Below, piece by piece: positions 8,438-47,127 of a stretch of 64,000 nucleotides of DNA (its first letter is position 1; every line of letters starts with the position of its first letter). The notes below the pieces were generated by a model. The model saw only the letters and a program-made list of their open reading frames with translations, was not told where the DNA came from and did not search any database. Location: positions 22,507-86,506 of the forward strand of contig CAZCTH010000005.1 in the NCBI GenBank assembly GCA_964501435.1, read 5' to 3'. The position numbers and the translations under genes were made by a program. The DNA comes from an uncultured Spirochaetales bacterium. Its GTDB lineage: Bacteria > Myxococcota_A > UBA9160 > UBA6930.

Positions 8438-8448
8438 CTCCGGACCTC

Positions 8449-12330: not shown

Positions 12331-12441
12331 GCGTGCGCCTCCTATCCTCGCTCGACTACGGACGCGCGCGGGTAGCGGTGACAAGAGATCGACTCTGGGC
12401 TGGCCGGTCGCGGGCGGGCGCCCTCGAACTACAGTTCCGGC

Positions 12442-13855: not shown

Positions 13856-14488
13856 ATGCGCGCGCTCGGAGCGCTACTCGTCGTCGGCTACGTCGTCTCG
13901 GCGGTCCCGTGCGCTGCCGCCCCGGATCCGGACGCATCGGCTCGCGCTGCGGCGGAGGAAGCCACGATTGCGGACTGGCAAGAGCGCGCGCGCGCGCTGT
14001 TTGCGCAGGCCGAAGACGCAGCTCTCCGGCTCGAGGCCGGTCGCCGCGCCTACAAGCGGGCGCGTCAGGGAGGCGATGTCCAAGGGGGCGATCGGCTCGC
14101 CCTGATGACGGAGGTCGCGCGAGCGGAAGCCGACCTTCACGACGCGCGGGCCGGTTTCGCGCGCCTGCAAGAGGAGGCCCGGCGCGCAGACCTACCCCCG
14201 GGCTTTCTCCGCGAGCTCGAGGATGCCGCTTCCTCAGAGGACATCGCGTTCGAGCTGGCCACGGAGGCCGAGACTCCCGACCAGCACTCCACGGTGGCGC
14301 GCAATCTGCGCGCGCGAGCGGTCCGCTATCGCGCGATGGCCGAGCGGCACCGCACACTCGGCCGTAGGTACGCCGACGACGACAGGAGATCGCAGCAAGC
14401 GCACTGCGAACGGCTCGCCGACCTCGAAGAGAAGATGGCGGGACAATACGACCGCCTCGCCGAGGGCCACGAGGAGCACGCGAACTAG
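13856..14488 (+). CDS. secreted helical protein, paralogue A of an unrecognised family
   Basis: 210 aa with a signal peptide. It aligns by eye along its full length with the 15686-16363 product. Shared C-terminal module: ETPDQH..RNLRARAVRYRAMAERHRTLGRRY..HCERLADLEEKMAGQYDRLAEGHEEHA. Confidence 0.65.
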   Translation: MRALGALLVVGYVVSAVPCAAAPDPDASARAAAEEATIADWQERARALFAQAEDAALRLEAGRRAYKRARQGGDVQGGDRLALMTEVARAEADLHDARAGFARLQEEARRADLPPGFLRELEDAASSEDIAFELATEAETPDQHSTVARNLRARAVRYRAMAERHRTLGRRYADDDRRSQQAHCERLADLEEKMAGQYDRLAEGHEEHAN

Positions 14489-14513: not shown

Positions 14514-15611
14514 TCACGTCTCCGCAAAGTGGAGCGCTGGCCTTCCAGCGCAGGCAGCGGGATCGTGCTCGAAGCGATCGCGACAATTGAGTGAGCAGAA
14601 GTAGAACGTCGCCTCCTCGTGCACCGATTGCGCGCGCGCACGCTCGGGGTTGATGACCATCCCGCAAACGGGATCGAAGTGGAGACTGAGTGCGCGGTCG
14701 GCCTGCGCGCGGTGCGCTGGCGGAGACTTCATCAGCTTCTCGATCGTCGGAAGCGCTGCCTCGGTCGCGCGTCGCCCAGCCGCGACGGCTTCGCTCACGC
14801 GATGGAAGTCGCGCAGGCCGATGTCCCCTAGCTCCGGGGCGATGAGCAGCTCCGGCCCGATCATGGCCTCCGCCAGCGCCGTCTGATGGTCGAGGACGAT
14901 CTCGGCGGCTCGGGCGAGTAGTTCCAACGCGATCTTCGCGGTCGCTGGGTTCGGGACGAAGCCGCCGAGCCTCGAAAACCACGGCGTGACGCGCCAATTG
15001 AGCTGCGGCATTCGCCGATCTCGCGCTGCTCCAACCTTGACGGCGACGACGACGTCGGGATCTGCGATCGCGGCTACGTCGACTGGAATCAAGTTGAGGA
15101 GCGCGCCGTCAACGAGCCAACGCGTGCCAACTTTCACAGGCGGCAGCACGCCGGGCACTGCGCAGGTCGCCTCGACGGCGGGCCGCAAGGCGCCGGCGTG
15201 GATCACGACTTGCGTCCCCGCCTCGAGGTCGACAGCAGTCACAGCGAGAGGGGTCTTCAGTTCGGCAAAGGTCGCAGGGAGGGCATTCGCGGCAGCGCCG
15301 AAGATTGACGACCAAGAGACCAAGCCACCCGGGATGAACCAGCGCGGGAAGCGGAAGTCTTTGGCGAGGTCGGCGATCTCACGGGCATCGAGACCTGCCG
15401 CACTGAGGGCGCCGATCAACCCTCCCATACTGCTGCCGGCAAGGAAGTCCACCCGGATGCCTTCGCGCTCGAGCACGTCAAGCACTCCGACGTGGGCGAG
15501 GCCCCGGGCTCCTCCGCCGCCAAGGGCAAGCGCGAGGCGAGCGCGGGTTCGCGTCTCCGCACCTCCCTCTCGCCCAGCTCCGACGGAAATGAGTCTCGCG
15601 CGCGGCGTCAT
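14514..15611 (-). CDS. patatin-like phospholipase fused to a C-terminal YHS/TRASH metal-binding domain
   Basis: Patatin motifs LALGGGGARGLAHVGV (oxyanion Gly-rich loop) and AGSSMGGLIG (GxSxG). The C-terminus HFDPVCGMVINPE...ATFYFCSLNCRDRFEHDP is a YHS-type motif. Confidence 0.85.
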   Translation of the reverse strand: MTPRARLISVGAGREGGAETRTRARLALALGGGGARGLAHVGVLDVLEREGIRVDFLAGSSMGGLIGALSAAGLDAREIADLAKDFRFPRWFIPGGLVSWSSIFGAAANALPATFAELKTPLAVTAVDLEAGTQVVIHAGALRPAVEATCAVPGVLPPVKVGTRWLVDGALLNLIPVDVAAIADPDVVVAVKVGAARDRRMPQLNWRVTPWFSRLGGFVPNPATAKIALELLARAAEIVLDHQTALAEAMIGPELLIAPELGDIGLRDFHRVSEAVAAGRRATEAALPTIEKLMKSPPAHRAQADRALSLHFDPVCGMVINPERARAQSVHEEATFYFCSLNCRDRFEHDPAACAGRPALHFAET

Positions 15612-15685
15612 ACCTTCCTCTCGCTACGGACGAGGCGGCGCAAGGTGACTGATTCGTGCGCCGAAGGATGGCCTTCGCGCGCGAC

Positions 15686-16363
15686 CTATTGTTCGGCGTG
15701 CGCCTCGTGACCCTCGGCGAGTCGCTCGTACTGGCCGGCGAGCTCCTCCTCGATGTCGCCGAGCCGTGCGCAATGCTCGCTCAGTCGCTCGCCGTCGCGT
15801 CCCCCCATCGCCGCATAGCCCGTGGCCATGTCCCGGTGACGCCGCGCTTGGGCGCGGTGCCGAGCCGCCCGCTCGCGAAAGTTGAGGGCTGCAGCGCGAT
15901 GCTGTTCGGGCGTCTCGGCCGCGGCCGACAGCTCGACCGCGAGATCGGGGGCGCGGTAGTCCTCGAACTCGCGGAGTGCGTCCGCCACGGCGTCGCCGCG
16001 CGCTTCCTCGAACAGATCCTCGAGCTCCTCCTGCGCATCGATGACGTCGGCCTCTGCCTGCGCAGCCTCGGTCAGGACCGTGAGCTTTTCCTCCCCATGA
16101 GCGCGTCGATTGCCACGCAACCGAGAGTACGCGCGGCGACTCTCCTCGAGACGAGCGGTCGCCCGTTCGAGCCTGGATACGGTTCCGCGCGCGCGCGCGC
16201 GAAGAGTCTCGCGGAGCTCATCGTCCGAGTGACTGTCTGCCAAACCGCCGAGGGGCTGGAGAAGGACGGCACATGTTAGGGAAACTGCGCACGCGGCGCC
16301 GCTGAGCGAGACTCCATGGCGAAGTGCCGCCGGCCTCCGCACCACTCGGTGGATCGACATCAT
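15686..16363 (-). CDS. secreted helical protein, paralogue B
   Basis: Starts at MMSIHRVV, with the ATG overlapping the upstream stop (ATGA). C-terminal module: ETPEQHRAAALNFRERAARHRAQARRHRDMATGY..HCARLGDIEEELAGQYERLAEGHEAHA. Confidence 0.65.
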   Translation of the reverse strand: MMSIHRVVRRPAALRHGVSLSGAACAVSLTCAVLLQPLGGLADSHSDDELRETLRARARGTVSRLERATARLEESRRAYSRLRGNRRAHGEEKLTVLTEAAQAEADVIDAQEELEDLFEEARGDAVADALREFEDYRAPDLAVELSAAAETPEQHRAAALNFRERAARHRAQARRHRDMATGYAAMGGRDGERLSEHCARLGDIEEELAGQYERLAEGHEAHAEQ

Positions 16364-16800
16364 CGACGGCTCGGAGCGGACTGCGGCTCGACCTTTTTCA
16401 GTAGCTGACCCTCGCGCGCCCAATGCTGAATGAGGCCAGCGCTCAAGTGGTCGAGCGCGTCGAGCGCCCGCTGCTTCTGCCCAGCCTCGATCGCCTGTCG
16501 AACCGCGAGCACGTCTTTGGCGAAGTGCTCATGCGTATCGAGCAGACCGGCGACCTCAGCTCCGGTGCTGCCAGAAGCGCCGTGCGCAGCTTCGGAAGAG
16601 GCGTGCGTCGATCGGTCCGGGCAGGAGCGGCCAGCTGGTGCATGGAGGAGCTCACCCTTGCCTCCGTAGACGCACGATCCGCCGACGTCGCGGTACGGAT
16701 TTCCCTGCAGCGGCCGATCTCGCACTTGCTGGCCGAGCGCAGCGGCCGCAAGCATTAGGCCACCGGCGACGGATGCTAGGACTGCGCGCTCACGCTTCAT
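16360..16800 (-). CDS. secreted hypothetical protein
   Basis: 146 aa starting at MKRERAVLASVAGGLMLAAAALG, with a GAGGAG RBS. It overlaps the upstream gene by 11 nt. The C-terminal helical segment is LLDTHEHFAKDVLAVRQAIEAGQ...HLSAGLIQHW. Confidence 0.55.
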   Translation of the reverse strand: MKRERAVLASVAGGLMLAAAALGQQVRDRPLQGNPYRDVGGSCVYGGKGELLHAPAGRSCPDRSTHASSEAAHGASGSTGAEVAGLLDTHEHFAKDVLAVRQAIEAGQKQRALDALDHLSAGLIQHWAREGQLLKKVEPQSAPSRR

Positions 16801-17797
16801 CGCGGATCTCCTCGCGCGTCTGCGCATCATGAGAAGCAGTCGGGGCCGGCTGGACCACCACGAGCGTGCCAACCATTCCGGCCTCGGTGTGCCCCGGGAT
16901 CGTGCAAAGCACCTCATACGAGCCGGGCGTATCGAGCTGGTAGGTGCCCGCGTCGGTGCCCTTCGGTCCGGCGTGCAGGTGGATGAGGTCGCCTCCGCCC
17001 GGCGCGCGCACGAGCAGCGAGTGCTCGACCAGGGCCTCGCGATTGTCGAGCTCGATGCGCGTCGCGATCCCTGCGCGCAGCTCGAGCCTACGCGGGACGA
17101 ACGCGAATTCCGTCGACTTCACGACGAGCGTCTCCGCGGCCGGCACGTCCACCGCCGCGAGCGGCTTCACGCGGTGTTCGTGGCCCGGCAGACGGCTCAT
17201 CGCGCCGTGGTCGTGTGCGCTCCCACTGTGCTGCTCGTGTGCCGCCCCGCCCTCGAGCGCTCCTGACGGGTATTGGGAGCGCAGGAGCTCGAGCACCGCG
17301 TTCAGCTGCTCGAGCGCAGCGCTCGTGCGCGCGGTGTCGCCTGCATCGGCCGCCTCGTGCAGCTTGCCCGAGACCGCAGGAATCTGCTTGACGGCTGACT
17401 CGGCTCGCGCGCGCTGCTCGGCGGTCAAGTCCGGGCTCTTCTCGAGCATCGCTCGCCCAAGCGGCTCGAGAGCCTCCGACTTCTCGTGGATGCTCGCGAG
17501 CTGGCCGTTCGTGACATCCGCGGCAATCGAGTCGCGCGTGCTTTGCAGCCTTGCCCAGGTCGACGCAAGGTCGGCGGCATCCGCGGGGCCCGCCGAGCCA
17601 TGCGCTTGCTCACCGGCCATCTCGTCGTGCATCGAACCGTCGCCGTGCCCATCGCCATTGTGCTCGCCGCGGCCGCCCTGCACATCGGCGGCGGGCGCCG
17701 CAGGCGGCGCTGCCGACGGCTCCGTTTCGCTCGACCCACAGGCGAGCGCAAACGCCAAAGGCAGTGCAGTCCAGAACAAGGTTTCTCTCGAGATCAT
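16790..17797 (-). CDS. lipoprotein with a His-rich helical N-domain and a C-terminal cupredoxin (type-1 copper) domain
   Basis: Lipobox LAFALACGS and an AGGAGA RBS. The C-terminal cupredoxin ligands are ...VEHSLLV... and VLCTIPGHTEAGMVG (Cys-x2-Gly-His-x4-Met). Confidence 0.75.
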   Translation of the reverse strand: MISRETLFWTALPLAFALACGSSETEPSAAPPAAPAADVQGGRGEHNGDGHGDGSMHDEMAGEQAHGSAGPADAADLASTWARLQSTRDSIAADVTNGQLASIHEKSEALEPLGRAMLEKSPDLTAEQRARAESAVKQIPAVSGKLHEAADAGDTARTSAALEQLNAVLELLRSQYPSGALEGGAAHEQHSGSAHDHGAMSRLPGHEHRVKPLAAVDVPAAETLVVKSTEFAFVPRRLELRAGIATRIELDNREALVEHSLLVRAPGGGDLIHLHAGPKGTDAGTYQLDTPGSYEVLCTIPGHTEAGMVGTLVVVQPAPTASHDAQTREEIRDEA

Positions 17798-17813
17798 CGA
17801 AGTTCTCCTGGTG

Positions 17814-20800
17814 TTAGGGAAGGGAAGGCGCCCGTACAGCATTCGCTGAATGGGCCGCTGTCGCGTGCGACGCGCGCGCCTCGGCGACCCAGCGCTCGGC
17901 GGCCTTGCGCCCGAAGCGCAGGAACACGGTCGGGGTCACCGCCATGTCGAGGATCGTCGAGCTGACGAGGCCGCCGAGAATCACGACGGCGACCGGGTAG
18001 AGAATCTCCTTGCCTGGCTCGCCGGCCGCGAGAACGAGCGGGATCAGTGCGAGACCGGCCGTGAGCGCGGTCATCGTTACCGGCACGAGGCGCTCGAGCG
18101 AGCCGCGCACAACCATCTGCTCGCCGAACGCCTCGCCCTCGTACTCCATCAGGTGGAGGTAGTGCGAGATCATCATGATCGTGTTGCGCGACGCGATCCC
18201 GGCGAGCGTAATCAGTCCGACGAGCGTTGCGATCGAGACCTTCCCGACGAGCAGCCACGTGAGCGCAATGCCGCCGACGAAGGCGAGCGGAATGTTGAGG
18301 AGAATCTGCGCGACGATCGCGCCGCTCCGGAAGTGCGTGTAAAGGATCAGCCAGATGACGCCGAGGGTGAACGCCGACAGGATCGCGATGAGGCGCGAGG
18401 CCGCCTGTTGGCTCTGGAACTGGCCCTCGAACCGAATCGAGTAGCCCTGCGGCAAAGGCACGCTGGCGGCGGTGCGTTGCATCTCTGCGACCGCCGAACC
18501 GAGGTCGCGGCCCGAGACGTTGGCGGAGACGACGATGCGCCGGCGCACATCCTCGCGCTGGATCACGTTCGGCCCGAGCCCTTCGCGAACGTCCGCGAGT
18601 GCCGCGAGCGGAACCCGCACGCCTTCGCCCGCATCCACCAGCGCTTCGCGGATCGCATCCGCGTCGCGGCGCGCGTCGCTGCCGTAGCGAACGAACAGCG
18701 CGAAGCTCCGATCCCCATCGAGGATCTGGCCCACGACGCGCCCGTTGAGTGCCGTCTCGAGACGCTCGGCGACTTCTCCCACGCGACTGCCGAGCGCCAT
18801 CGCACGGTCGCGACGCAGCGCGATATTGAGCTGAGGAATCAGCACCTGCTTCTCGACCTGGAGATCGACGACTCCCGGGATCGCGCCAAACGCGCGCTCG
18901 AGCTCGGCCGCCTTCGTGCGCAGCACGGTGAGGTCGGGCCCGAAGATCTTGACGGCGACCTGCGCGCGTACGCCAGAAAGCAAGTGATCGAGGCGATGTG
19001 AAATGGGCTGACCGATGTTGACCGCGATTCCGGGAATCTCGGCGAGCTGCTCTCGAAGGTCGGCGAGGATCTCCTCGCGCGAGCGTTCGGATTCTCTCAA
19101 GTCGACATCGATCTCCGTGTAGTGGACACCCTCGGCGTGTTCGTCGAGCTCGGCGCGGCCCGTGCGCCGTCCGGTCGAGATGACCTCGGGCACGCTCAAG
19201 ATCAGCTTCTCGGCGATCGCGCCGATGCGATTCGACTCGGACAGGGACGTACCGGGCGCGGCGAGCACGTTGATGGTCGCCGTGCCCTCATTGAACTCGG
19301 GCAAGAACTCGCTTCCCATGCCGGGGAAGAGCGAGAACGAGCCGGCCACGAGCGCACCCGTGATCGCAAGCACGAGGACCGGGCTCCGAAGCGCAGGCCC
19401 CAGCAAGTAGCGGCGGTCGAGCGACTTGAGGCCTCGGACCACGAAGCCTTCGTGCTCGTCCTCCATCCGCTTCATGCGCGGCAGCAAGTAAGAGCAAAGC
19501 GCGGGAATCACGGTGAGCGAAACCACGAAGGAAGCGGCCATGGCGACGATCGTCGCAACACCGATCGGAGCGAAGAGCCGCCCCTCGATGCCGCCCAGGC
19601 CGAAGAGCGGAACGAACACGAGTATGACGAGCAGCGTCGCGTAGAGGATCGAGTTGCGGACCTCTGACGACGCGGAGGCGATGACCCTCACCGCCGGCTG
19701 CGGATTGGGAGAGTGCCGGTTCTCGCGCAAGCGGCGAAACACGTTCTCGACATCGACGATCGCGTCGTCGACGACCATGCCGATCGCGACGGCGAGGCCA
19801 CCCAGGGTCATCGTATTGATCGAGATGTCGGCGAACCGAAACACCAGCGCGGTGACGACGAACGATAGGGGGATCGCCGTGAGCGTGATGAACGTGGTGC
19901 GGAAGTTCAGCAGGAACAGGAAGAGGACGATCACGACCATGATGGCGCCATCGCGAATGGCCTCTTCGACGTTGGCAATCGCCGCCTCGATGAAGCGCGC
20001 CTGCTGGAAGAGCGTCGAGATCTCGACGTCAGCGGGAAGCCCCGTGCGCAGCTCCGCGAGGGCTGCCTCGACGTCACGCGTCAATGCGATCGTGTCGACA
20101 CCCGGCTGCTTCTGAACGGAGATGATCACGGCGGGCTTCCCCGAGACTCCGGCGTCGCCGCGCATGACTTGGCGACCCCATGCGACATCGGCGACGTCGC
20201 GCAGGAGAATTGGGGCGCCATCCCGCTGCGCCACCACCGTATCGGCGATCTCCGGAGCCGAGGCTGTGCGCGCGATGTTTCGGACCAGGGCCTCCTGGTG
20301 GGCCGCCTCTAAGAAGCCCCCCGGTGTGTTCGACTGCGCGGCGGCGGCCGCGGCCTCGACATCGTCGAGCGAGACGTTGAATGCCGCCATTCGCTCCGGA
20401 GAGGCGAGAACCTGGAGCTGGCGAACGCCGCCGCCAATCGGAATGACCTGCGCGACACCTGGTAGCGTGAGTAGCCGCTGTCGGATCTCCCAGTCGGCGA
20501 TGGACCGGAGCTCCATCGGCGGTGTTGCGCCGTCCGTGCTCGAAAGCCCGATCAGCAGAATCTCGCCCATGATCGACGAGACCGGCCCGAGGACGGGCGA
20601 GGCCTCCGCGGGAAGCAGCTGGGCCGCGAGCTGAACTCGCTCCTGCACGAGCTGGCGAGCTCGGTAGATGTCGGTGCCCCAGTCGAAGTCGACATAGACG
20701 ATCGAGAGCCCAATACCCGAGCTCGACCGCACGCGGCGAACGCCGGGGGCGCCGTTCACGGACGTCTCGAGCGGCCGCGTGACGAGGGTCTCAACCTCTT

Positions 20801-20975
20801 CGGGGGCGAGGCCCGGTGCCTCAGTCAGAATCGTGACGAGCGGTCGGTTGAGGTCCGGGAAAACATCCACCGGAAGCTGCTGCACGACGACGGCCCCGTA
20901 GACGAGGAGGAGCACAGACGCAGCGAGAACGAAGAGACGATTGCGGAGAGAGAATTCGATCAGCCGATTGAGCAT
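17814..20975 (-). CDS. heavy-metal efflux RND permease (CusA/CzcA family)
   Basis: 1053 aa. N-terminus MLNRLIEFSLRNRLFVLAA...LPVDVFPDLNRPLVTILTEAPGLAPEEVE, with the 12-TM RND architecture. Confidence 0.93.
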   Translation of the reverse strand: MLNRLIEFSLRNRLFVLAASVLLLVYGAVVVQQLPVDVFPDLNRPLVTILTEAPGLAPEEVETLVTRPLETSVNGAPGVRRVRSSSGIGLSIVYVDFDWGTDIYRARQLVQERVQLAAQLLPAEASPVLGPVSSIMGEILLIGLSSTDGATPPMELRSIADWEIRQRLLTLPGVAQVIPIGGGVRQLQVLASPERMAAFNVSLDDVEAAAAAAQSNTPGGFLEAAHQEALVRNIARTASAPEIADTVVAQRDGAPILLRDVADVAWGRQVMRGDAGVSGKPAVIISVQKQPGVDTIALTRDVEAALAELRTGLPADVEISTLFQQARFIEAAIANVEEAIRDGAIMVVIVLFLFLLNFRTTFITLTAIPLSFVVTALVFRFADISINTMTLGGLAVAIGMVVDDAIVDVENVFRRLRENRHSPNPQPAVRVIASASSEVRNSILYATLLVILVFVPLFGLGGIEGRLFAPIGVATIVAMAASFVVSLTVIPALCSYLLPRMKRMEDEHEGFVVRGLKSLDRRYLLGPALRSPVLVLAITGALVAGSFSLFPGMGSEFLPEFNEGTATINVLAAPGTSLSESNRIGAIAEKLILSVPEVISTGRRTGRAELDEHAEGVHYTEIDVDLRESERSREEILADLREQLAEIPGIAVNIGQPISHRLDHLLSGVRAQVAVKIFGPDLTVLRTKAAELERAFGAIPGVVDLQVEKQVLIPQLNIALRRDRAMALGSRVGEVAERLETALNGRVVGQILDGDRSFALFVRYGSDARRDADAIREALVDAGEGVRVPLAALADVREGLGPNVIQREDVRRRIVVSANVSGRDLGSAVAEMQRTAASVPLPQGYSIRFEGQFQSQQAASRLIAILSAFTLGVIWLILYTHFRSGAIVAQILLNIPLAFVGGIALTWLLVGKVSIATLVGLITLAGIASRNTIMMISHYLHLMEYEGEAFGEQMVVRGSLERLVPVTMTALTAGLALIPLVLAAGEPGKEILYPVAVVILGGLVSSTILDMAVTPTVFLRFGRKAAERWVAEARASHATAAHSANAVRAPSLP

Positions 20976-20978
20976 GGT

Positions 20979-22079
20979 TCACGCCACCACGCGGCGGCGC
21001 CGATTTCGCCAGATCACGATGCTCACGCCGGCGATCGCGGCGATCACCCCGGCGACGATCCAGACGAGTCGCGGCGCGCCCGCATCTCGGTCCGTCCCAA
21101 CTGACGCCGCGGCGTCAGCGGCATGCTCCGTCGCTTCTTCTTCTGGCGCTGGCGGCAGAAACTGCAGCTGGTAGCCGCCAGCGGTAACGACGCGTTCCCC
21201 AGGTACGAGACCGTCGAGGACCTCGGCGAAGCGATCGTCGCTCGCTCCCCGCGCGATCGGCCGCCGCTCGAAGCGCGTCGCATCGCGGTCGCTCTCGACG
21301 AACACGAAGAGCGAGCCGAACTCGCCGAGGATCGCGCTTCGCGGCACGGTGAGGGCTGACGAGGAGCGCTCTGTCACGAGCGCAATCGAAGCCTGCATGT
21401 GCGGCCTGAATGCGCCGTCGGCGTTCCTCAAGCGCACGAACACGGGGATCGAGCGAGAGTTGACGTCGAGCTGCCCACCGACCCGCTCGACCACGCCCTC
21501 GAACGTGCGATCCGGAAAGGCAGGAACTACGACGCGGGCCACCTGCCCCTCGCGGACTCGCGCGACCTGGCCCTCGAAGACGCGTCCGATCGCGAGCACT
21601 TCTTCGAGGTCTGCGATCTCGAGCAGATGCGCGTTCGGCTCAACTGCGTCCCCCGCGACGATGTGCCGATCGATCACCACGCCGCTCAGCGGCGCTGCGT
21701 AGGTCACGCGCGGGGGAGGATCGCCGAGGAGGAGGCTTTCGACGGTGACGACGGGCTGACCGCGCCGCACCGAATCGCCCTCTGCGACGAGCACCGATGC
21801 GACGCGCCCCGCGATCCGGCTTGCGACAGCACCCGATCGCTCAGGCAACGCCACGATCTCGCCGGTGAGGTTGAGTACCGTCTCGAGTGGGCGAAGCTCG
21901 GCTGCTGCGACTTTCAGCTCGAGGTTCCTGCGAGCCTCCGCCGAAACCTCGACCTCGTATCGCTCGGCGCCGGCTGCAGCCTGTGCGCCGGGGGCTTCGC
22001 TGTGCCCTTCGTGCGCTTGAGCGACCGAAGTGGCGAGCAAAGCGACGAGCGAAACAGTGAGCGCAAGCTGGCGGTTCAT
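20979..22079 (-). CDS. efflux RND periplasmic adaptor (CusB/CzcB-like MFP)
   Basis: Starts at MNRQLALTVSLVALLA (signal). It shows a lipoyl/beta-barrel pattern (TGEIVALPERSGAVASRIAGRV...GDSVRRGQPVV). ATGA overlap with the TolC-family stop. The track ORF's 5' extension is rejected. Confidence 0.85.
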   Translation of the reverse strand: MNRQLALTVSLVALLATSVAQAHEGHSEAPGAQAAAGAERYEVEVSAEARRNLELKVAAAELRPLETVLNLTGEIVALPERSGAVASRIAGRVASVLVAEGDSVRRGQPVVTVESLLLGDPPPRVTYAAPLSGVVIDRHIVAGDAVEPNAHLLEIADLEEVLAIGRVFEGQVARVREGQVARVVVPAFPDRTFEGVVERVGGQLDVNSRSIPVFVRLRNADGAFRPHMQASIALVTERSSSALTVPRSAILGEFGSLFVFVESDRDATRFERRPIARGASDDRFAEVLDGLVPGERVVTAGGYQLQFLPPAPEEEATEHAADAAASVGTDRDAGAPRLVWIVAGVIAAIAGVSIVIWRNRRRRVVA

Positions 22080-23395
22080 TGGCGCGATTCCTCTTCTTGC
22101 ATGGACTGCAGCAGCGGGCTCGCAGCTGCGGCGGCTTCGAGGTCGACCTCGGCGCGGCGAAGCGCACCCAGGGTTTCGGCGAGACGCGCGGAGGTCTCGG
22201 CGAGTTGCCGCTGGCCCTGCACGACGTCGCTGATCGGCGTTAGGCCTTGTGCGTAGCCGCGGCGGAGTAGCTCCACATTGCGGCGCGCTCGGCCAAGCGC
22301 GTCGATCTGGAACGTCTCCGCGAGTACTCGGAGACGTGCGGTGCGCTGGGCTGCCGAGGCGACCTCCGCTCGGGCGGCCTGCTCCGCAGCCGCCAGCCGT
22401 GCCTCGGTGGAGCGTTCCCGCGCGAGTGCCGATGCCACTCGGCCTTGGTTTCGGTTCCAGAGCGGCAGAGGGATTCGAAGCGAGAGGGCGAGCAGGTTGT
22501 CTCGATCCTTCAGTACAAGATTCGCGGAATCGATCGCACTGTTCTCGCGCTGGTACGCCGCGCCCACGGACCAATCCTCCCAGACCTCCGCGCGTGCGAG
22601 CCGCGCCTCTGCGCGCGCACGCGCGGCCTCCGACCGCAACCGCCTCAAGTCGGGCCTTGCGACAAGGGCCTTCGCAGTGAGGGACTCAACGGAAGGGTCA
22701 GCGAGGAGACTCGCATCGAGCGAATCCTTGATTTCCAGCGCTGAGTCGGGCGGTCGATTCAGGAGTCGGTTCAATGTGAACAGAGCGGCAGCGCGCTCGA
22801 GACGCAGCAGCTCGCGCTCTTGCTCGAGCGAGGACACTTCGATCGCGAGCAGGTTCACGTCTGCTTCTGAGGTCTCTGCCGCCTGAAAGCGCCGGACCGA
22901 GATGTGCGAGAGCTCCTGCGTCGCCTTCAATACCTCGTCGCGCGCGGCGATCGCGCGCTCGAGCGCGAGTACCGAGACTGCGGTGCTCTGCGCCTCGGCA
23001 ACCAGCTGCAGTGCCAAGAGATCGGAGTCGCGCTTCGCGATTCTGACGTCGCTGCGCGCAACGGCACGCGCGCGCTCGATGCGTCCCGCGATGGGCACGG
23101 GCTGGGAGAAGCCTAGGCGTCCACTGCGATCGCCCTGGGATCCGAGAATGCTGCCCTCCACCCACTCAGCGTCGGCCTCCGGGTTGGGCCAAAGGCCTGC
23201 CTGCGTCAGATCACCGCGGGCCGCGTCGATCTCGGCGCCGGCTGCGCGCAGGGCGGGATTTGCCCGCAGAACCTCGGCGGCGATCTCGCGCACGCCGAGC
23301 GAAGAAGAGGCTACGGGTTCCTCTGCGCAGGCAGGGCTCAGCGAGAGAACTGTCGAGAGAGCGGACGCGAGAGCGGCCACGGAAACGCGGTGCAT
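22076..23395 (-). CDS. TolC-family outer-membrane efflux protein (CusC/CzcC-like)
   Basis: 439 aa with a signal peptide and the two-repeat helical pattern typical of OMF proteins. Confidence 0.85.
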   Translation of the reverse strand: MHRVSVAALASALSTVLSLSPACAEEPVASSSLGVREIAAEVLRANPALRAAGAEIDAARGDLTQAGLWPNPEADAEWVEGSILGSQGDRSGRLGFSQPVPIAGRIERARAVARSDVRIAKRDSDLLALQLVAEAQSTAVSVLALERAIAARDEVLKATQELSHISVRRFQAAETSEADVNLLAIEVSSLEQERELLRLERAAALFTLNRLLNRPPDSALEIKDSLDASLLADPSVESLTAKALVARPDLRRLRSEAARARAEARLARAEVWEDWSVGAAYQRENSAIDSANLVLKDRDNLLALSLRIPLPLWNRNQGRVASALARERSTEARLAAAEQAARAEVASAAQRTARLRVLAETFQIDALGRARRNVELLRRGYAQGLTPISDVVQGQRQLAETSARLAETLGALRRAEVDLEAAAAASPLLQSMQEEESRQ

Positions 23396-23479
23396 GACAC
23401 CTCCAAGCGATCCACGCTCAATCGAGAGCGCAGGATGAGCTTTGGCAACGGCGCCAAAGCAGATCGCGAGGCGTCTAGC

Positions 23480-23869
23480 TCAGAGTCGAAGAACGTCCCT
23501 TCGCAGTGGGATCACCGGCGGTGCGCGGTCGTGGCGCACTTCGATCGCTCGCTCGACAGCCGCACTGCGGGCGGCAGCGTCCCAGGGGATCAGCAGCACG
23601 AGATCCGAGTTCCCGATGCTCAGATCAACCGACGGCCCACTCTTCGGGACGCCCTGCATCAGCTGCTGGCAGTGATCGACGCAGCTCTCCTCCTGGCCGG
23701 AACCGCCACCAGGAGAATCGTGCGAGTCGCCGTGCCCATGACCAGCAGCGGGTGCTTGCTCGTGATGAGCTGAAGATCGCGCATGCTCATCCGCGAGCGC
23801 GCACATCGGCAGATGCGCCGACCAGATCGCGATCATGAGTGCTGCGAGCGTTTTCAAGTTGAACGGCAT
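23480..23869 (-). CDS. small His-rich exported protein, first gene of the RND operon
   Basis: 129 aa with a signal/TM (LKTLAALMIAIWSAHLPMCALA), a His run (HHEQAPAAGHGHGDSHD) and a CVDHC motif. The RBS is weak. Confidence 0.5.
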   Translation of the reverse strand: MPFNLKTLAALMIAIWSAHLPMCALADEHARSSAHHEQAPAAGHGHGDSHDSPGGGSGQEESCVDHCQQLMQGVPKSGPSVDLSIGNSDLVLLIPWDAAARSAAVERAIEVRHDRAPPVIPLRRDVLRL

Positions 23870-23897
23870 CCTATCCGTCGAGCCTTAGAACACCAAA

Positions 23898-23916
23898 TGG
23901 CCATCCGCAAGGCGGT
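23898..23916. promoter_or_regulatory. perfect 7-bp inverted repeat CAAGGCG-N5-CGCCTTG in the leader of the RND operon
   Basis: The sequence reads caaggcggtggacgccttg, about 30-50 nt upstream of ATG 23869 of the His-rich first gene. It could be an operator or an RNA hairpin. Confidence 0.2.
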
Positions 23917-24090
23917 GGACGCCTTGGGATGTCCATCGACCTAGCGGACTCCCACCTTGATCCGCGTTCTTGGGAGGGGCAGCCGCGCGAATTGCTTAGG
24001 ATTGTCTCAAGGGTCGCGCGCGCCGTCCGTGCCCTGGAGAGAAGGCGGCCGACTCCGAACTGGGGCCGGATCACACCCTCCAACGGCGGC

Positions 24091-24453
24091 TCAGCGCTTC
24101 GCCTCGGCTTCGTGATCCGCTGCGAGCTTCTCGTATTCTTGGGCTACGCCCTCGAACTGCTTCGCCAGAGCGTCGCAGTGCGCCTTCATCTTCTGCCGCT
24201 CGAAGAGCTTCCCACCAGCGTAGTTCTTTCCCATCGAGCGGTGGCTTGCGGCAGTCGCCCGCGCCTCGGCGGCCTTCCCGCGATAATGCTCGGCGAGGGC
24301 CTTGTGCTCGGCGGGAGTGCTCGCGAACTCGACCAGCAGGGCCTCGATCGACGAATCCCTGCTGCCGTGGCCCGCGTGCGCTCCCTCTTGGGCGATGGCC
24401 GCACCACCCAGCACACAGAGTCCGAAGATTGCTGCGATTCCAAGCGTTCTCAC
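24091..24453 (-). CDS. secreted helical protein, paralogue C (C-terminal module only)
   Basis: GTG 24453 is preceded by AAGGAG at a 7-nt spacing. It has a signal peptide (VRTLGIAAIFGLCVLGGAAIA). Module: STPAEHKALAEHYRGKAAEARATAASHRSMGKNY..HCDALAKQFEGVAQEYEKLAADHEAEA. Confidence 0.6.
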   Translation of the reverse strand: MRTLGIAAIFGLCVLGGAAIAQEGAHAGHGSRDSSIEALLVEFASTPAEHKALAEHYRGKAAEARATAASHRSMGKNYAGGKLFERQKMKAHCDALAKQFEGVAQEYEKLAADHEAEAKR

Positions 24454-24548
24454 GAGTCTTCTCCTTGCGGTTGTTTTGGGAATGGCGGGGCGCAACGCGG
24501 CGCGGCCGAGGATGGGTCAAAGCAATCGGCGTGCCTGAGTCCTTCTGA

Positions 24549-24565
24549 GCGGATCTGTGCGGATC
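24549..24565. promoter_or_regulatory. tandem direct repeat GCGGATC-tgt-GCGGATC (10-bp period), candidate regulator-binding site
   Basis: Perfect 7-mer repeated with helical phasing, about 100 nt upstream of GTG 24453, in the 225-nt gap between glgP and paralogue C. Confidence 0.2.
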
Positions 24566-24678
24566 CTCGTCGGTTTTCGGGTGTGTCGAGATCGAGTGTT
24601 GCTCGCGGGGGAGGCAAAATCTGAGAAGCGTGCCCAGTTCGGAGGCATGCAGGGAGGGCGTCGGGGCACCGGGGAGGC

Positions 24679-26538
24679 CTAGAGGTAGGCGCTCGCCGCG
24701 TACTGCTGGACCATACGATGGGTGTTGAAAAAGGACGCGTTCAAGGCGATCGCCTGCCGCATCACATCGATCCAGCCGGAGCGATTCCCGTAGTACAGCG
24801 GGACGATCACCTGCTCGAGCTTCGCGTAGAGGTCGCTGGCGTCGCGAGCATCGATTTCGGCACCTGCGGCACTGGCGGCATCGTCCGTGCCGATCGACCA
24901 GCCTGTGACGCCTTCGATGTGCCCCTCGATCCACCAGCCGTCCAAGACGCTGAGGCTCGGGACGCCGTTGTGCGCCGCCTTCATCCCGGAAGTGCCCGAG
25001 GCTTCCAGCGGCCGAGCGGGCGTGTTGAGCCAAAGGTCTACTCCGGCCGTGAGGCAGCGAGCGAGTTCGACGTCGTAGTTTTCCAGGTAGACGACTCGAA
25101 CCGATCCGGCGAGCTCTCGGGCAACGCGAAACACCCCGCGAATCAGGTCTTTGCCCGTCGCGTCGCGCGGATGTGCCTTGCCCGCCAAGACCAGCTGGAT
25201 GGGGCCCGCGAGCCGGGCGATGGAGCGAAGGCGATCGACGTCGCGAAAGAGAAGCTGCATCCGCTTGTACTCGGTTGCGCGGCGCGCGAACCCGATTGTT
25301 AGGGAGTCGCCCGCGAGATCGACGCCGGTTCTCGATCGCACCCGATCGATCAAGGCCGCCTTCGCCTCGAGGTGGGCGCTCCAGATCTCTAAGCGCGGAA
25401 TTCGGAGCGCATTGCGCAGCAGATAGGAATCCGACATCCACCCGGGCAGGTGTCGATCGTAAACGCGCGCGAAGCTCTCCGCGGTCCAGGTGACGGAGTG
25501 CACACCGTTAGTAACCGCATCGAACGTGTGTCCGGGAAAGAGGCTGCGAGATACCTCCCCGTGCTTCTTGGCGACGCCGTTGGTGTACTGGCTCAGATTC
25601 ATCGCGAGCAGCGTCAGGTTGAAGCGGCCTGCACCGCCGAACATCTCGAGCTGGTCCCTCGGCAACGGCGTCTCGAGAAGCTCTGCCAGGAGCTCATAGG
25701 CGAACTGGTCGTGACCTGCGGGAACCGGTGTGTGCGTTGTGAACACGCATTGGCTCCGCACACTGGCATAGGCTTCGTCATCTCCCGAAACCTTTTTCTC
25801 CCCGCGAAGGAGCTCGAGCGTGAGCAACGCCGCATGCCCTTCGTTCATGTGAAAACGCTCGACGTGCGCGTACCCGAGTTCGCGAAGCATGCGGAGGCCG
25901 CCGATCCCGAGCACGATCTCTTGGGCAAGCCGGTAGCGCTCGTCGCCCCCGTAGAGATGCGCCGTAAGGGACCTGTCTTCTGGCGTGTTGCTTGGGCAAT
26001 CCGTGTCGAGCAGGAGCAGCGGGACGACGTAGCCGGTCGCACCGCGAATCTCGTACTGCCAAGCGCGCACTTCGACGGCGCGTGAGGCGATGCGCACTTC
26101 GACTCTGGCCTCGGCGCAACGAGCGAACTGGGCCGGATCCCAGGCCACCTCGTGCTCGCTCTGGTTCCCGTCGGCGTCGAGCCGCTGCTCGAAGTAGCCC
26201 TTGCGGTGCACGAGCGACACACCGACGACGGGGATTCGGAGATCCGCGCAGGATCGCAGTGCATCGGCCGCGAGGACCCCGAGGCCCCCACTGTACGTGG
26301 GCATCCTCGGGTGGACTGCTGCCTCCATCGTGAAGTAGGCGATGCGACGGCGCGCAGGATCGATGCGCGCTCCCTCGTCGCGGGTGAGGGCGCCGTAACG
26401 TTCCGGCTGGAAGAGGAACTTCTGGAGGCAGAGCTTCGAGCAGAACGCGACCGCCCTCCCCTCCCGCAGCAGCGTCAGGCTCTCCTTCGGCTCGACCTCC
26501 ATGCCGCAGACCGGATCTCTCATGCAGCGCACTCCCAT
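24679..26538 (-). CDS. glgP: alpha-glucan (maltodextrin/glycogen) phosphorylase, GT35, with an N-terminal YHS/TRASH domain
   Basis: N-terminus (MGVRC)MRDPVCGMEVEPKESLTLLREGRAVAFCSKLCLQKF, then IAYFTMEAAVHPRMPTYSGGLGVLAAD and EASGTSGMKAAHNG (PLP Lys region). The start is ATG 26538 or 26523; the latter has a GGGAG RBS. Confidence 0.88.
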   Translation of the reverse strand: MGVRCMRDPVCGMEVEPKESLTLLREGRAVAFCSKLCLQKFLFQPERYGALTRDEGARIDPARRRIAYFTMEAAVHPRMPTYSGGLGVLAADALRSCADLRIPVVGVSLVHRKGYFEQRLDADGNQSEHEVAWDPAQFARCAEARVEVRIASRAVEVRAWQYEIRGATGYVVPLLLLDTDCPSNTPEDRSLTAHLYGGDERYRLAQEIVLGIGGLRMLRELGYAHVERFHMNEGHAALLTLELLRGEKKVSGDDEAYASVRSQCVFTTHTPVPAGHDQFAYELLAELLETPLPRDQLEMFGGAGRFNLTLLAMNLSQYTNGVAKKHGEVSRSLFPGHTFDAVTNGVHSVTWTAESFARVYDRHLPGWMSDSYLLRNALRIPRLEIWSAHLEAKAALIDRVRSRTGVDLAGDSLTIGFARRATEYKRMQLLFRDVDRLRSIARLAGPIQLVLAGKAHPRDATGKDLIRGVFRVARELAGSVRVVYLENYDVELARCLTAGVDLWLNTPARPLEASGTSGMKAAHNGVPSLSVLDGWWIEGHIEGVTGWSIGTDDAASAAGAEIDARDASDLYAKLEQVIVPLYYGNRSGWIDVMRQAIALNASFFNTHRMVQQYAASAYL

Positions 26539-26543
26539 CGACC

Positions 26544-27233
26544 CTAGTGATGGGCGCGTGGAACCAGGTGTCCGCGAGCAAGGTCCTGCAGCCTCGGCAC
26601 CTCTGTCGCGTCGGACACTGTTAGGTCGACATCCCGCGAGTCCCCGACGCGCTCGATGCGCACACCGGGGAGATAGAGGGGGCAATGGTCGATTCGTGGC
26701 GCGCGAGCGCGCGCGAATGCCAGGTGACAGCGCATGTGCGCCATCGCTGCGTTCGTGTCGATGCCCGTGTCGAGGCGGACCCGGGCCCCGTCGAGGAGAG
26801 GCTCGACGGCTTCGACGTGTCCCGCGAAGGGGCATGCGGTTCGTGTCTCGGGCGGGAACGAAACGCAGGCGTCCTCCTCGAAAGCCTCGAGTTCGCGCGC
26901 TGCGGCGAGATGCTGCCTTGCGTGTTGCTCATGCTCGCCAGCGTGCTCGCGATGACGTTCGGTTGGGTTGTACTGGCCGGCGGGCCAGTAGAAGTCGCCG
27001 CTCGGAAAGCGCGATCGGGTCGATCGGAAGGGTTCGTAGCTGGGAAGGCTCGCCTCCGGGTCGTACTTCTCTCGGTGCTCGAGCGCCTCCCGAGCGTGCA
27101 ACTCTGATTCGCTGCGATGTGCCCCAGCATCCATCCCGGTGTGGCGCTCCGCGACGGTGCCACTGCACCCCGCCGCGAGGAGCGCAGCGGCCGCGAGTGA
27201 GATCGCGTGAAGTCTCGAGCCTCGCGGCCGCAT
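26544..27233 (-). CDS. lipoprotein, function unknown (His/Glu-rich)
   Basis: Starts at MRPRGSRLHAISLAAAALLAAGCSG (lipobox). It contains several Cys and an HREHAGEHEQHARQH stretch. Its stop lies 5 nt upstream of the glgP ATG. Confidence 0.55.
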   Translation of the reverse strand: MRPRGSRLHAISLAAAALLAAGCSGTVAERHTGMDAGAHRSESELHAREALEHREKYDPEASLPSYEPFRSTRSRFPSGDFYWPAGQYNPTERHREHAGEHEQHARQHLAAARELEAFEEDACVSFPPETRTACPFAGHVEAVEPLLDGARVRLDTGIDTNAAMAHMRCHLAFARARAPRIDHCPLYLPGVRIERVGDSRDVDLTVSDATEVPRLQDLARGHLVPRAHH

Positions 27234-33542: not shown

Positions 33543-33579
33543 GTCTCCCCCTCGGAACGACTCGCAGAGTCAAGCGTGA

Positions 33580-35856: not shown

Positions 35857-35859
35857 CCC

Positions 35860-43907: not shown

Positions 43908-46900
43908 CTACTCCGCTGGCGCTGAGGGCAGCGCGCGGGAACGCCAGATCACGTACAGCGCAGGAATCACTGCGAGCGTGAGCAGCGTGAGCGACAGCAG
44001 GCCGCCCCAGAGTGGCGCCGCGATGCGCTTCGCGACGTCCGATCCAATCCCCGTGTCGAACATCACCGGTACGAGGCCGACGATGTTCATCCCCACCGTC
44101 ATGAGCAGGGGGCGCACGCGCTGACTTCCCGACTCGAGCGCCATCTCGATCAGATCCGCTGTCGTCTGCAGGCGCCCCGCCTCGAGCCAGCGCCGATATC
44201 CCTCGTCGAGGTAGATCACCATGATCGACGCTGTCTCGGCTGCGATGCCGAGCAGACCGATGAGGCCGACCCACACGGCGACCGAGGTGTTGAAGCCGAG
44301 GCCCCAGAGCAGCCAGATCGAACCCATCGCGGCACAGGGAACCGAGAAGAGCACGAGCAGCGCCTGCGGCAGCCCGCCGAAGTTCACGTACAGAATCAAG
44401 AGAATCAGCCCGACTGTCAGGGGCACAACGATGCGCATCCGCGCTTCCATGCGCTCTAGGAACTCGTACTGACCGGTCCAGCGCAGGAAGTATCCCGGTG
44501 GCAGCACCAGCTGCTCGCTCACCTTCCGCTTTGCGTCCTCGACATAACCTCCGAGGTCGCTGCGCTCGGTGTCGACGTACACCCAGCCGGTGAGCAGGCC
44601 CTCCTCGTTCTTGATCATCGGTGGGCCCATCGTCGCGGAGATGGTTCCGAGCTGGCCGAGCCGGACCTGTGCAGATCGGCGCGGCATCCCCATGCCGCCC
44701 CCACTCTCAGCCGGCCCTTCTGCCATCCCGGCAGGGCCTGGCGGGATCCCGACGTCGATCGCGCCGCTCCGCTGAACCGGAATCGGGACCAGCACGCGGG
44801 CCAGCTCCTCCGGCGTGTCGCGCAGCTCACGCGGGTACCGAACGTTGATCCGGTAGCGCTCGCGGCCCTCAATCGTCGTGTCGACGTCGAGCCCACCGAT
44901 CGCGGTCTCCACGACCTCGAGCACGTCCATCGAGCGCAGGCCGTAACGCGCGATCGCATCTCGGTCCGGGACGAAGTCGATGAAGAAGCCACCGAGCTCG
45001 CGCTCCGCGTAGACGCTCCGCGTACCGGGTACGTCGCGCAAGATCCGCTCGAGCGACTCGGCCAGCCTCGCAATCTGCTCGAGGTCCGTCCCGAAGACCT
45101 TGATTCCGATCGGGGTGCGGATCCCCGTCGTGAGCATGTCGACGCGGGCCTTGATCGGCATCGTCCAGGCTGCCTGTTGGCCCGGCGTCGCCACCGCACG
45201 ATTCATCTCTGCGAGGAGGTCCTCGTACGTCAGGCCAGCGCGCCATTCCTCCTGTGGGCGCAGCGTGATGACGGTCTCGATCATCGAGAGCGGAGCCGGG
45301 TCCGTCGGTGTCTCGGCGCGGCCCGCCTTGCCGAAGACGCGCGTCACCTCCGGGATTTCTTTCAGGCGTCGATCCTGCTCCTGAACGAGTCGCTTGGCCT
45401 CTTCGATCGAAATGCCGGGCACGCTGATCGGCATGAAGAGCACGCTGCCCTCGTAGAGCGGCGGCATGAACTCGGAGCCGAGCCGGAAGAATGGAATGAG
45501 CGTCGCAACGATGCCTGCGGCCACGCTGACCACGAGCCCCTTGCGATGCACGAGACACCAGCGCAGGACGGGTCGATAGGCCGCCCGCAGGATGCGGGTG
45601 ATCGGATTTTCCGCCTCGGCTCGGATGCGCCCGCGCACGAGCCAAACCATGAGCGCGGGAACGAGCGTCACGGAGAGGAGCGCTGCGAATGCCATCGCGA
45701 GCGTCTTGGTGTAGGCGAGCGGCTTGAAGAGGCGGCCCTCTTGCGCTTCCAGCGTGAACACCGGCAAGAACGCGACGGCGATCAGCAGAAGCGAGCCGAA
45801 GATCGGGGGACCCAGCTCCTTCGCGGAGTCGATCACTACCCGCACGCGATCCGCACTCGGCCCGGCTTCCTCGAGCTTTCGATGCGCGTTCTCCACCAGC
45901 ACGACCGCCGCGTCCACCATGTCGCCGATCGCGATGATGATGCCCGCAAGCGACATGATGTTGGTCGTCAGACCCATTGCCGCCATCGGGATGAACGCGA
46001 GCAGCACGGCGATCGGCAGCGTGATCGCGGGTACCAGCGCCGATCGGAAGTGGAACAGGAACACGACGACCGTGGCGCAGACGATCGCCATGACCTGCAG
46101 AAGGCTCGTGCTCAGCGTGCGCACGGAGGCGTTGATCACCTCCGAGCGGTCGTACGTCGTCACTACCCGCACGCCGGCCGGCATCGCCGACTGCATCTCT
46201 GCGAGCTTCGCCTTGACGCGCTCGATCACTTCGAGCGCGTTCTCCCCGAAGCGCATCACGACGATTCCGCCGACGGTCTCGCCCGTGCCATCGAGCTCGG
46301 CGAAGCCACGGCGAATGTTTCCGCCCACTTGCACGCGAGCGATGTCGCCGAGCTGGACCGGCGTTCCGCGTGCGTCGGTCGTCACAACGATCTTGGCGAT
46401 CGCCTCGCGGCTCTGGAGGTAGCCGCGCCCGCGCACGGCGTACTCGTGCTGCGCGAGCTCGACGACGCGGCCCCCGACATCCCCGTTCGACATTCGAATC
46501 GCGGCCGCGATGTCGGAGATCGAGAGGTCGAACGCCTGCAGGCGAATCGGGTCGATCTCGACCTGATACTCCTTCTCGTAACCACCGAGACTCGCGACCT
46601 CGGCCACACCCGGCACCGAGGAGAGCCAATAGCGGAGGTGCCAATCCTGGAAGCTGCGAAGCTGCTGGAGGTCGTGCGTCCCGGTTTCGTCGACGAGCGC
46701 ATACTCGAAGACCCAGCCGACGCCCGTCGCATCGGGCCCGATCTGCGGCGCGACTCCGGGCGGCAGGCGACCCTGCAGCTTTACGAGGTACTCAAGCACG
46801 CGGCTGCGCGCCCAATAGATGTCGGTGCCGTCCTCAAAGATGACGTACACAAACGACATTCCGAACATCGTGAAGCCGCGCACCACTTTCACTTTGGGTG

Positions 46901-47126: not shown

Positions 47127-47127
47127 C

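Follow-up and report, generated by a model that had tools for sequence, protein, structure and literature searches.

Organization of the array

The DNA analysed here is a 64,000-nucleotide stretch (hereafter the window; G+C 67%) from an uncultured Spirochaetales bacterium, and our subject is an array of eleven open reading frames (ORFs) within it (14514–27233, all on the minus strand), in which a resistance–nodulation–division (RND) efflux pump of the HME family is encoded together with small envelope proteins and two enzymes, a patatin-like lipase and an alpha-glucan phosphorylase, each carrying a YHS module. These modules account for the only two YHS motifs in the window. Both enzyme fusions, and a family of exported helical-hairpin proteins encoded alongside them, recur beside copper-resistance genes in other lineages, and we propose that copper may gate the two enzymes through their YHS modules. 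The ORF coordinates lie at or very near those first read, all eleven ORFs have the base composition of coding DNA (GC1 high, GC2 ~0.5, GC3 high), and independent gene calls on three metagenome contigs of identical sequence return the same genes on the same strand. The features are as follows, in the order of transcription of the array.

26544..27233, minus: His-rich lipoprotein, 229 aa, lipobox LLAAGC (from sequence), ending 5 nt before the phosphorylase start
24679..26538, minus: alpha-glucan phosphorylase of the TIGR02094 type with N-terminal YHS (TIGR02094 561 bits, YHS 33.5 bits)
26398..26520, minus: YHS module of the phosphorylase (DPVCGM...FCSKLC; domain and motif match)
24091..24453, minus: paralogue C, exported 120-aa His/Cys helical hairpin (NF047526 51.5 bits; profile and AlphaFold2 (AF2) model)
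23480..23869, minus: exported His-rich protein, 129 aa (signal peptide and His-rich stretch)
22076..23395, minus: outer-membrane factor, TolC/OEP (PF02321, E 3e-35)
20979..22079, minus: periplasmic adaptor of the CzcB/CusB type (HlyD_D23, E 4e-31; TIGR01730 above cut-off)
17814..20975, minus: HME-family RND permease, not of the CusA type (TIGR00914 773 bits)
16790..17797, minus: lipoprotein, His-rich toward the N terminus and ending in a type-1 cupredoxin domain, a CopI-like architecture (PF00127 22.9 bits)
16360..16800, minus: exported 146-aa protein (from sequence)
15686..16363, minus: paralogue B, exported, joining a coiled-coil extension to the His/Cys hairpin domain (alignment)
14514..15611, minus: patatin-like (RssA-like) lipase, cytoplasmic, with C-terminal YHS (Patatin E 8e-23, YHS 33.5 bits)
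14553..14675, minus: YHS module of the lipase (DPVCGM...FYFCSLNC; domain and motif match)
13856..14488, plus: paralogue A, convergent with the lipase gene (alignment)

The spacing between genes divides the array. Five nucleotides separate the lipoprotein gene from that of the phosphorylase (which probably starts at 26538 or 26523 rather than at the far-upstream ATG of a long ORF), followed by gaps of 225 nt to paralogue C, 221 nt from there to the His-rich protein, and 84 nt to the outer-membrane factor. The succeeding junctions are an ATGA overlap (outer-membrane factor/adaptor), 3 nt (adaptor/permease), 16 nt (permease/cupredoxin), an 11-nt overlap (cupredoxin/146-aa protein), and a second ATGA overlap (146-aa protein/paralogue B); overlaps or gaps of 16 nt or less are confined to this stretch and to the lipoprotein/phosphorylase pair, and the lipase gene lies 74 nt behind paralogue B. 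A terminator-like hairpin (24637–24621) lies just past the phosphorylase stop, a kind of site that is no commoner than in shuffled sequence. Several transcripts are suggested by the 225-, 221-, and 84-nt gaps, and on this spacing we read the array as at least three transcription units rather than one eleven-gene machine; the lipoprotein and the YHS-phosphorylase would form their own unit, apart from that of the pump. A shared operator motif was sought in the intergenic regions of the window, yielding only GC-rich low-complexity words and one 9-mer without extended similarity, and Rfam and tRNA scans of the window were empty.

Much of the original prediction, a model's reading of the letters alone, stands at this level. 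The eleven minus-strand genes and their junctions are borne out by the ORFs, coding G+C, and independent gene calls; paralogue A does converge on the lipase gene, with 25 nt between stops; both enzymes are true YHS fusions (PF04945, 33.5 bits each against a cut-off of 30.3); and the three helical proteins are indeed paralogues (A–B 49% identical over 171 aa, E 9e-31; A–C E 5e-12; B–C E 2e-10). Its claim that the eleven genes make up one recruited system does not hold, given that the cupredoxin, 146-aa, and His-rich proteins have no counterparts elsewhere, and that the 225/221-nt gaps and the terminator-like hairpin isolate the lipoprotein–phosphorylase pair.

The two YHS-tagged enzymes

The lipase belongs to the patatin family (PF01734, 82 bits against a cut-off of 27.7), and its catalytic Ser (G-S-S-M-G) and Asp (D-G) are invariant in 24 homologues. 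Across the same set there is little or no variation in G59/S61/G63, D168/G169, and the GGGxRG loop, and the YHS residues D313, C316, C339, and C343 are invariant together with one Met. The catalytic domain is best matched by the RssA/YchK-type patatin-like phospholipases (PRK10279 RssA, E 5e-32), with which it has in common the Ser–Asp dyad and a Gly-rich oxyanion loop; it falls short of the RssA equivalog (NF007623, 111 bits against a cut-off of 272) and, unlike RssA, bears a YHS module, patatins without this module not being pump-linked. An AF2 model of the lipase displays a patatin fold, a disordered linker of 15 residues (296–310), and a separate YHS module; as modeled, a YHS module on a flexible linker would suit a tethered regulatory domain, although the model does not reveal its mode of action. 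The patatin-YHS family comprises more than 120 clusters at 57–79% identity, nearly all annotated with both domains and named in databases only as “patatin-like phospholipase” or “NTE family protein”. No patatin-YHS homologue was found in PLSDB plasmids.

The phosphorylase is assigned to TIGR02094 (561 bits against a cut-off of 191.7), with the pyridoxal phosphate lysine, K520 in EASGTSGMK, invariant in 21 sequences; in its YHS module C33 and C37 are invariant and D8 and C11 at least 90% conserved. This fusion of YHS to GlgP (hereafter YHS-GlgP) is likewise common to more than 120 clusters and is widespread in metagenome-assembled genomes (MAGs) of NC10, Binatia, Planctomycetes, and Nitrospirales. 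The nearest named relatives of both window enzymes are Binatia and “Deltaproteobacteria” MAGs.

The YHS modules of the enzymes carry the same DP(V/I)CxM...FCSxxC signature as the YHS of a copper ATPase encoded in one of the related loci (L175, below), and the Met that follows the first YHS Cys is invariant in both enzyme families. On general grounds of coordination chemistry, a Met in this position fits a soft Cu(I) ligand better than it fits zinc.

The lipoprotein encoded ahead of the phosphorylase (26544..27233) matches no Pfam, NCBIfam, or PADLOC family, and its sole recurrence is a 50% identical homologue near the patatin-YHS gene of L098. A further neighbor of the lipase family, seen in a single instance, is a long acyl-CoA dehydrogenase gene directly 3′ of patatin-YHS in L102 (6564–8501), a possible link from lipase product to beta-oxidation.

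Exported hairpin paralogues and other envelope proteins

Paralogues A, B, and C have in common a domain of ~85 residues with invariant TP..H, HR, Y, HC, and H positions; candidate metal ligands in paralogue C are H50, H71, H92, C93, and H114. The AF2 model of paralogue C is a two-helix hairpin behind a signal peptide (predicted local distance difference test above 90), and a fold search of this model against the PDB returned generic helical hairpins only (E > 0.1). Used as a single query, paralogue C gave seven matches, such that a profile search was needed to define the family; this recovered 1413 representative relatives at E up to 0.001. The closest described relatives are the ~110-aa proteins typified by LIC_10421 of Leptospira (NF047526), whose C-terminal two-helix domain is common to the paralogues. 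None reaches the NF047526 cut-off of 90 (paralogue C 51.5 bits, paralogue A 21.7 bits, paralogue B no match), and paralogues A and B differ in bearing a coiled-coil extension of ~100 aa. LIC10421 figures in the literature only as a hypothetical protein in transcriptome tables; relative to LIC_10421, the link of hairpin proteins to copper loci is new. By paralogue profile, most YHS-enzyme loci encode a hairpin protein and not one of 77 control loci does; in a Nitrospirales locus one is encoded directly 3′ of YHS-GlgP.

The remaining envelope proteins behave differently. The cupredoxin lipoprotein is a type-1 protein (PF00127, 22.9 bits against a cut-off of 21.2) whose His/Cys/His/Met ligands (C-x4-H-x4-M plus an upstream His) align to those of auracyanin B; a lipobox is present in both proposed lipoproteins of the array (L-A-C and A-G-C). 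In combining a His-rich region with a type-1-ligand cupredoxin in a metal-resistance locus it resembles CopI (NF051440), but it reaches 29.4 bits against the equivalog cut-off of 280 and aligns only over its last ~30 residues. The protein, a 335-aa lipoprotein whose middle part contains an additional helical region, is itself not kept in related loci. Searches of the Pfam, NCBIfam, and PADLOC type gave no family for the His-rich and 146-aa proteins, and tblastn of the related loci found no counterpart of these two or of the cupredoxin; the three are specific to the lineage of the window.

The pump of the array

The array permease belongs to the HME family (TIGR00914, 773 bits against a cut-off of 701; ACR_tran, 869 bits over residues 6–1020), with CusA (482 bits) and ZneA (432 bits) as its best PDB matches. 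The described system closest to it is CusCFBA of Escherichia coli (HME-RND, HME4 type): the array pump is likewise an operon of outer-membrane factor, adaptor, and RND permease in the CusA/CzcA family, with CusA as the best solved relative of its permease. It differs in having no CusF and in placing N, Y, and H at the positions of CusA M573, M623, and M672, which rules it out as a CusA-type Cu(I)/Ag(I) pump. As the permease is without the Cu(I) Met triad, the substrate of the array pump is uncertain; the adjacent cupredoxin and the neighbors of the enzymes in other loci would point to copper. We know of no described Cus operon with a lipase, glucan phosphorylase, or hairpin protein. As a separate peculiarity, the array adaptor (20979–22079, minus) ends in an unusual hydrophobic C-terminal segment followed by RRRR.

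Outside the array, the window encodes a second pump that is canonical:

43908..49601, minus: CusCBA pump with the Met triad in its permease
48279–49601, minus: outer-membrane factor of the second pump (CusCBA)
47128–48282, minus: CusB-like adaptor of the second pump (CusCBA)
43908–47126, minus: CusA permease of the second pump, M/M/M, the full triad (triad alignment)

Directly after this CusCBA set lies a type-II (Ca/Mg-type) P-type ATPase gene, with TerC adjoining (41204–49601, minus).

Recurrence of the YHS enzymes in copper-resistance loci

Neighborhoods of patatin-YHS genes were gathered by individual homologue look-ups, a genome scan, and a metagenome scan with the C-terminal alignment, and were analysed by tblastn (individual loci are given L numbers). 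The genome scan with full-length patatin-YHS was swamped by generic patatins and gave three true members, the other loci being reused as controls; these come mostly from other phyla and are not taxon-matched. A same-strand RND permease lies within 5 kb of patatin-YHS in 11 of the 16 loci having at least 4 kb of flank (9/13 without near-duplicates), the gap between the two genes often being less than 1 kb, whereas such a permease is present in none of 73 YHS-less patatin loci from the same scan. The lipase gene may sit downstream of the permease (L007, L084, L087, L095, L102, L105, L107, L112) or upstream of the outer-membrane gene (L004, L005, L101). In ten loci (L004, L005, L007, L084, L090, L095, L102, L105, L107, L112) the linked permease retains CusA M573/M623/M672, and in L087 it belongs to a non-CusA subfamily, as in the window, so that two or more pump types have entered into this linkage. 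The resemblance to CusCFBA is closer in most other loci than in the window itself, the partner pump of the YHS enzyme having both the CusA Met triad and a CusB-type adaptor that carries HMBD. L004, which also encodes CusF and a CusRS-like pair, is the clearest case of linkage: its gene order (multicopper oxidase, CusF, cytochrome c, OmpR-type regulator, histidine kinase, hairpin protein, patatin-YHS, CusC, CusB, CusA) places the lipase between the CusRS-like two-component pair and CusCBA.

In 5 of 8 contexts YHS-GlgP has Cus pumps, a copper ATPase with its own YHS, or multicopper oxidase/CopB genes as neighbors. Individual loci read as follows:

L102: CusA, YHS-GlgP, and patatin-YHS on one strand
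L090 (Binatia): CusCBA, three small ORFs, a methyltransferase, a YHS protein, and YHS-GlgP; beyond these, a LOG-type enzyme with C-terminal YHS and another YHS protein
L175: YHS-HMBD-P1B ATPase, YHS-GlgP, multicopper oxidase, CopB
L091: multicopper oxidase and CopB 6 kb upstream of YHS-GlgP
L176: an RND gene 9 kb from YHS-GlgP
L093, L177: YHS-GlgP without metal genes

Comparison of 14 independent YHS-enzyme loci with 64 control loci gives enrichments that, with the controls mostly from other phyla, are indicative rather than exact: RND genes in 8 versus 1 (p 1e-6), multicopper oxidases in 4 versus 0, P1B ATPases in 4 versus 1, and UbiE-type methyltransferases in 4 versus 0.

The adjacency noted in the original prediction is thus not idiosyncratic, with patatin-YHS lying by RND pumps of at least two subfamilies in two gene orders, YHS-GlgP by Cus pumps, a YHS-P1B ATPase, and multicopper oxidase/CopB genes, and the hairpin family accompanying both enzymes. 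Its picture of a pump that recruits accessories survives for the hairpin proteins, patatin-YHS, and YHS-GlgP, all of which recur; it does not extend to the cupredoxin, and outside the window patatin-YHS is usually partnered by a pump of true CusA type. The claim should narrow accordingly: the copper pump, patatin-YHS, and the hairpin protein make up a conserved core, around which YHS-GlgP, small YHS proteins, and a methyltransferase should be regarded as variable members. The coupling to energy mobilisation that was also put forward finds little cross-locus support. The window does encode phosphoenolpyruvate (PEP) synthase, two GH57 enzymes, phosphofructokinase, acetate kinase, and phosphoketolase (27410–39330), with glucokinase (2070–3197) and glucose-6-phosphate dehydrogenase (~49800–51227) elsewhere; as a conserved “energy module” this set is rejected, with glucokinase, phosphofructokinase, phosphoketolase, acetate kinase, and PEP synthase in none of the 14 other YHS-enzyme loci and a large GH57 enzyme in 2 of 14, which leaves the phosphorylase itself as the only backing for the idea. 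The combination was further held to be undescribed, and our search of the accessible literature agrees: neither patatin nor phosphorylase is connected with the “YHS domain” in any paper found there, and none ties patatin-like lipases to Cus operons. The HME-RND pump, the cupredoxin, the YHS module, and the YHS-regulated enzyme are all of known kinds; what appears to be undescribed is the conserved siting, in copper-resistance loci, of the hairpin family and of the two YHS enzymes, lipase and phosphorylase.

Several features of these loci deserve separate record. SAM-dependent (S-adenosylmethionine) methyltransferases of the UbiE type lie beside YHS enzymes and Cus pumps in the window (51336–52067, 63336–63998) and in L084, L090, L175, L177, and L178. 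A third YHS-tagged enzyme occurs in L090 (15817–16578) and L178 (12123–12953). It is of the LOG/SLOG type (LDcluster4), carries its YHS at the C terminus, and has a beta-CASP/RMMBL gene directly after its own; the LOG protein of the window (39439–40155) is not its equivalent, being of a different subfamily without YHS, and this YHS-less subfamily recurs in L107. Downstream of patatin-YHS in L112 (4719–8222) are genes for a DUF411 protein, a small YHS ORF, a DUF2231 protein, and a His-rich P1B-type ATPase, and then a second RND gene of non-Cus type. The adaptor of L087 (858–2717) is a tandem double adaptor of 619 aa, and in L090 a 23S-rRNA-IVP-family gene (3639–4001) lies between CusB and CusA.

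Proposed copper gating and alternative readings

Accounts of bacterial copper homeostasis deal almost entirely in transporters, chaperones, oxidases, and transcriptional sensors. Against this background we favour, with moderate confidence, copper gating of the lipase and phosphorylase within a composite metal-resistance stretch as the best explanation of the array. The pump unit, which runs from the His-rich gene through paralogue B and ends in patatin-YHS after a further 74 nt, would be an HME-RND efflux operon whose periplasmic metal-handling accessories are the CopI-like cupredoxin lipoprotein and the exported His/Cys hairpin proteins. Copper leaking into the cytoplasm would bind the Asp/Cys3 site (plus Met) of the YHS modules, and the copper-bound modules would switch the enzymes to which they are attached: the lipase might then remodel or repair inner-membrane lipids, and the phosphorylase free glucose-1-phosphate from stored glucan, while the pump and periplasmic proteins clear the metal. 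The proposal starts from what is observed directly, namely gene order, domain make-up, conserved catalytic residues and ligand positions, and a link to copper pumps that other lineages also show; metal binding, the direction of the effect, the lipid substrate, and the physiological benefit are each things that we infer.

The one experimental precedent found for such gating is a class III adenylyl cyclase with a YHS tag from Mycobacterium phlei: copper at 1–10 µM activates this enzyme via its C-terminal YHS, with an Asp and three Cys as the proposed ligands (Linder 2015, PMC4626032). The same Asp and three-Cys set is common to both window fusions. The systems differ in output domain (cyclase there, lipase or phosphorylase here), in the N-terminal position of the YHS in the window phosphorylase, and in that the cyclase is not reported as pump-linked.

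Several points weigh against copper gating. The permease of the array itself lacks the Cu(I) triad, and the enrichment figures carry the limitation of their controls. The AF2 model of the lipase shows no docking of the YHS module on the catalytic domain. No pump lies within 10 kb of patatin-YHS in L085, L097, and L178 or of YHS-GlgP in L093 and L177. The YHS of toluene-4-monooxygenase binds no metal in the crystal and has no known function (PMC4626032), so YHS modules are not always sensors.

These last two points also feed an alternative that we consider unlikely, if still serious, in which the YHS is a structural zinc ribbon (treble clef) or an oligomerisation/interaction domain without any sensing role, the enzymes being merely co-regulated or co-carried with metal resistance. 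YHS/TRASH is indeed assigned to the treble-clef/FCS zinc-finger group, and the window, a mosaic island that includes Trb conjugation genes, brings many modules side by side. A purely structural role sits poorly with the tight same-strand linkage to two pump subfamilies in two gene orders, where YHS-less patatins have none, with the invariant Met after the first Cys and its better fit to Cu(I), and with the presence of the same signature on the copper ATPase of L175. Small stand-alone YHS proteins and a YHS-HMBD-ATPase do occur in the same loci as the YHS enzymes, suggesting a YHS trafficking network in which the enzymes might be cytoplasmic Cu(I) buffers or docking partners that pass copper to CusA/CopA, with catalysis incidental; we find this improbable, as catalytic residues are invariant in more than 20 divergent members of each family, implying selection on enzymatic function, and an enzyme of 365–619 aa would be a costly scaffold for a single metal site.

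That unrelated operons of a single organism came to adjoin here by chance, without common function, is very improbable overall. This reading holds for the cupredoxin, 146-aa, and His-rich genes, present in no related locus, and the 225/221/84-nt gaps do split the array; for the core genes it is largely refuted, with the associations of pump, patatin-YHS, hairpin protein, and YHS-GlgP recurring in independent lineages. Scarcely credible is a reading of patatin-YHS as a ligand-triggered suicide phospholipase in the manner of CBASS CapV, with a restriction-enzyme-like neighbor marking a defence context. This neighbor (12442–13773) is kept beside patatin-YHS in L109, L110, and L112, and weak PADLOC/NCBIfam matches to defence phospholipases exist, but they cover only 55 generic N-terminal residues (28–82) at 20–29 bits (for example, 24 against a cut-off of 200); cyclase or other defence partner genes are absent and the kept partners are copper genes. 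We accordingly reject the lipase as an anti-phage effector of the CapV or similar kind.

Copper gating of the two window enzymes may be one instance of a broader arrangement, which we put forward tentatively: a horizontally spread set found across phyla (Binatia-like, NC10, Nitrospirota, Planctomycetota, and gammaproteobacterial MAGs), in which copper might act post-translationally on at least three unrelated YHS enzymes (patatin lipase, alpha-glucan phosphorylase, and a LOG/SLOG-type nucleotide hydrolase) that share the YHS of the local copper ATPases and accompany Cus/Cop export genes, a UbiE-type methyltransferase, and hairpin proteins. This would amount to a metal-gated enzyme regulon rather than a transcriptional one. 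If copper gating is true, metabolic enzymes would read cytoplasmic copper directly, linking metal stress to membrane lipid turnover and the use of carbon reserves. The loci also offer a functional lead for two large unannotated domain architectures and for an exported hairpin family of ~1400 representatives, and the gating idea is open to simple biochemical tests (activity with and without copper, ligand mutants).

The surrounding mosaic island

The array is a composite copper/metal-resistance stretch inside a larger mosaic island, which is probably conjugative. Trb-type conjugation genes occupy 52537–61822 on the plus strand (TrbB-like ATPase, TrbE/VirB4, TrbL/VirB6, TrbI/VirB10), so a conjugative element probably carries the genes for metal resistance and carbohydrate metabolism in the window. 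The window has no tRNA gene and no plasmid match in PLSDB. Other genes of the window include those for an ICMT-like methyltransferase, the LOG protein, TerC, the type-II P-type ATPase, and methyltransferases. Those that recur around YHS enzymes elsewhere are MgtC, a Rieske/cytochrome b cluster, a large GH57 enzyme, ICMT, and a methyltransferase.

Adjoining the array on the minus strand (7603–12384) is a cluster of MgtC, a porin, and a cytochrome c/Rieske/cytochrome b–c fusion; the MgtC/porin/Rieske–cytochrome set is found also near patatin-YHS in L178 (641–5439) and near YHS-GlgP in L091 and L093. The restriction-enzyme-like protein adjoining paralogue A (12442–13773, plus) is of type II and matches NmeDI_C, the homologues directly 3′ of patatin-YHS in L109, L110, and L112 being 55–63% identical. 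Further along the minus strand (3595–6591) are genes for CopB and a multicopper oxidase; ahead of them is a small ORF of ~110 aa (MNLTRALGL...HMRMMDAMMEAMM) for an exported protein rich in Met and His.

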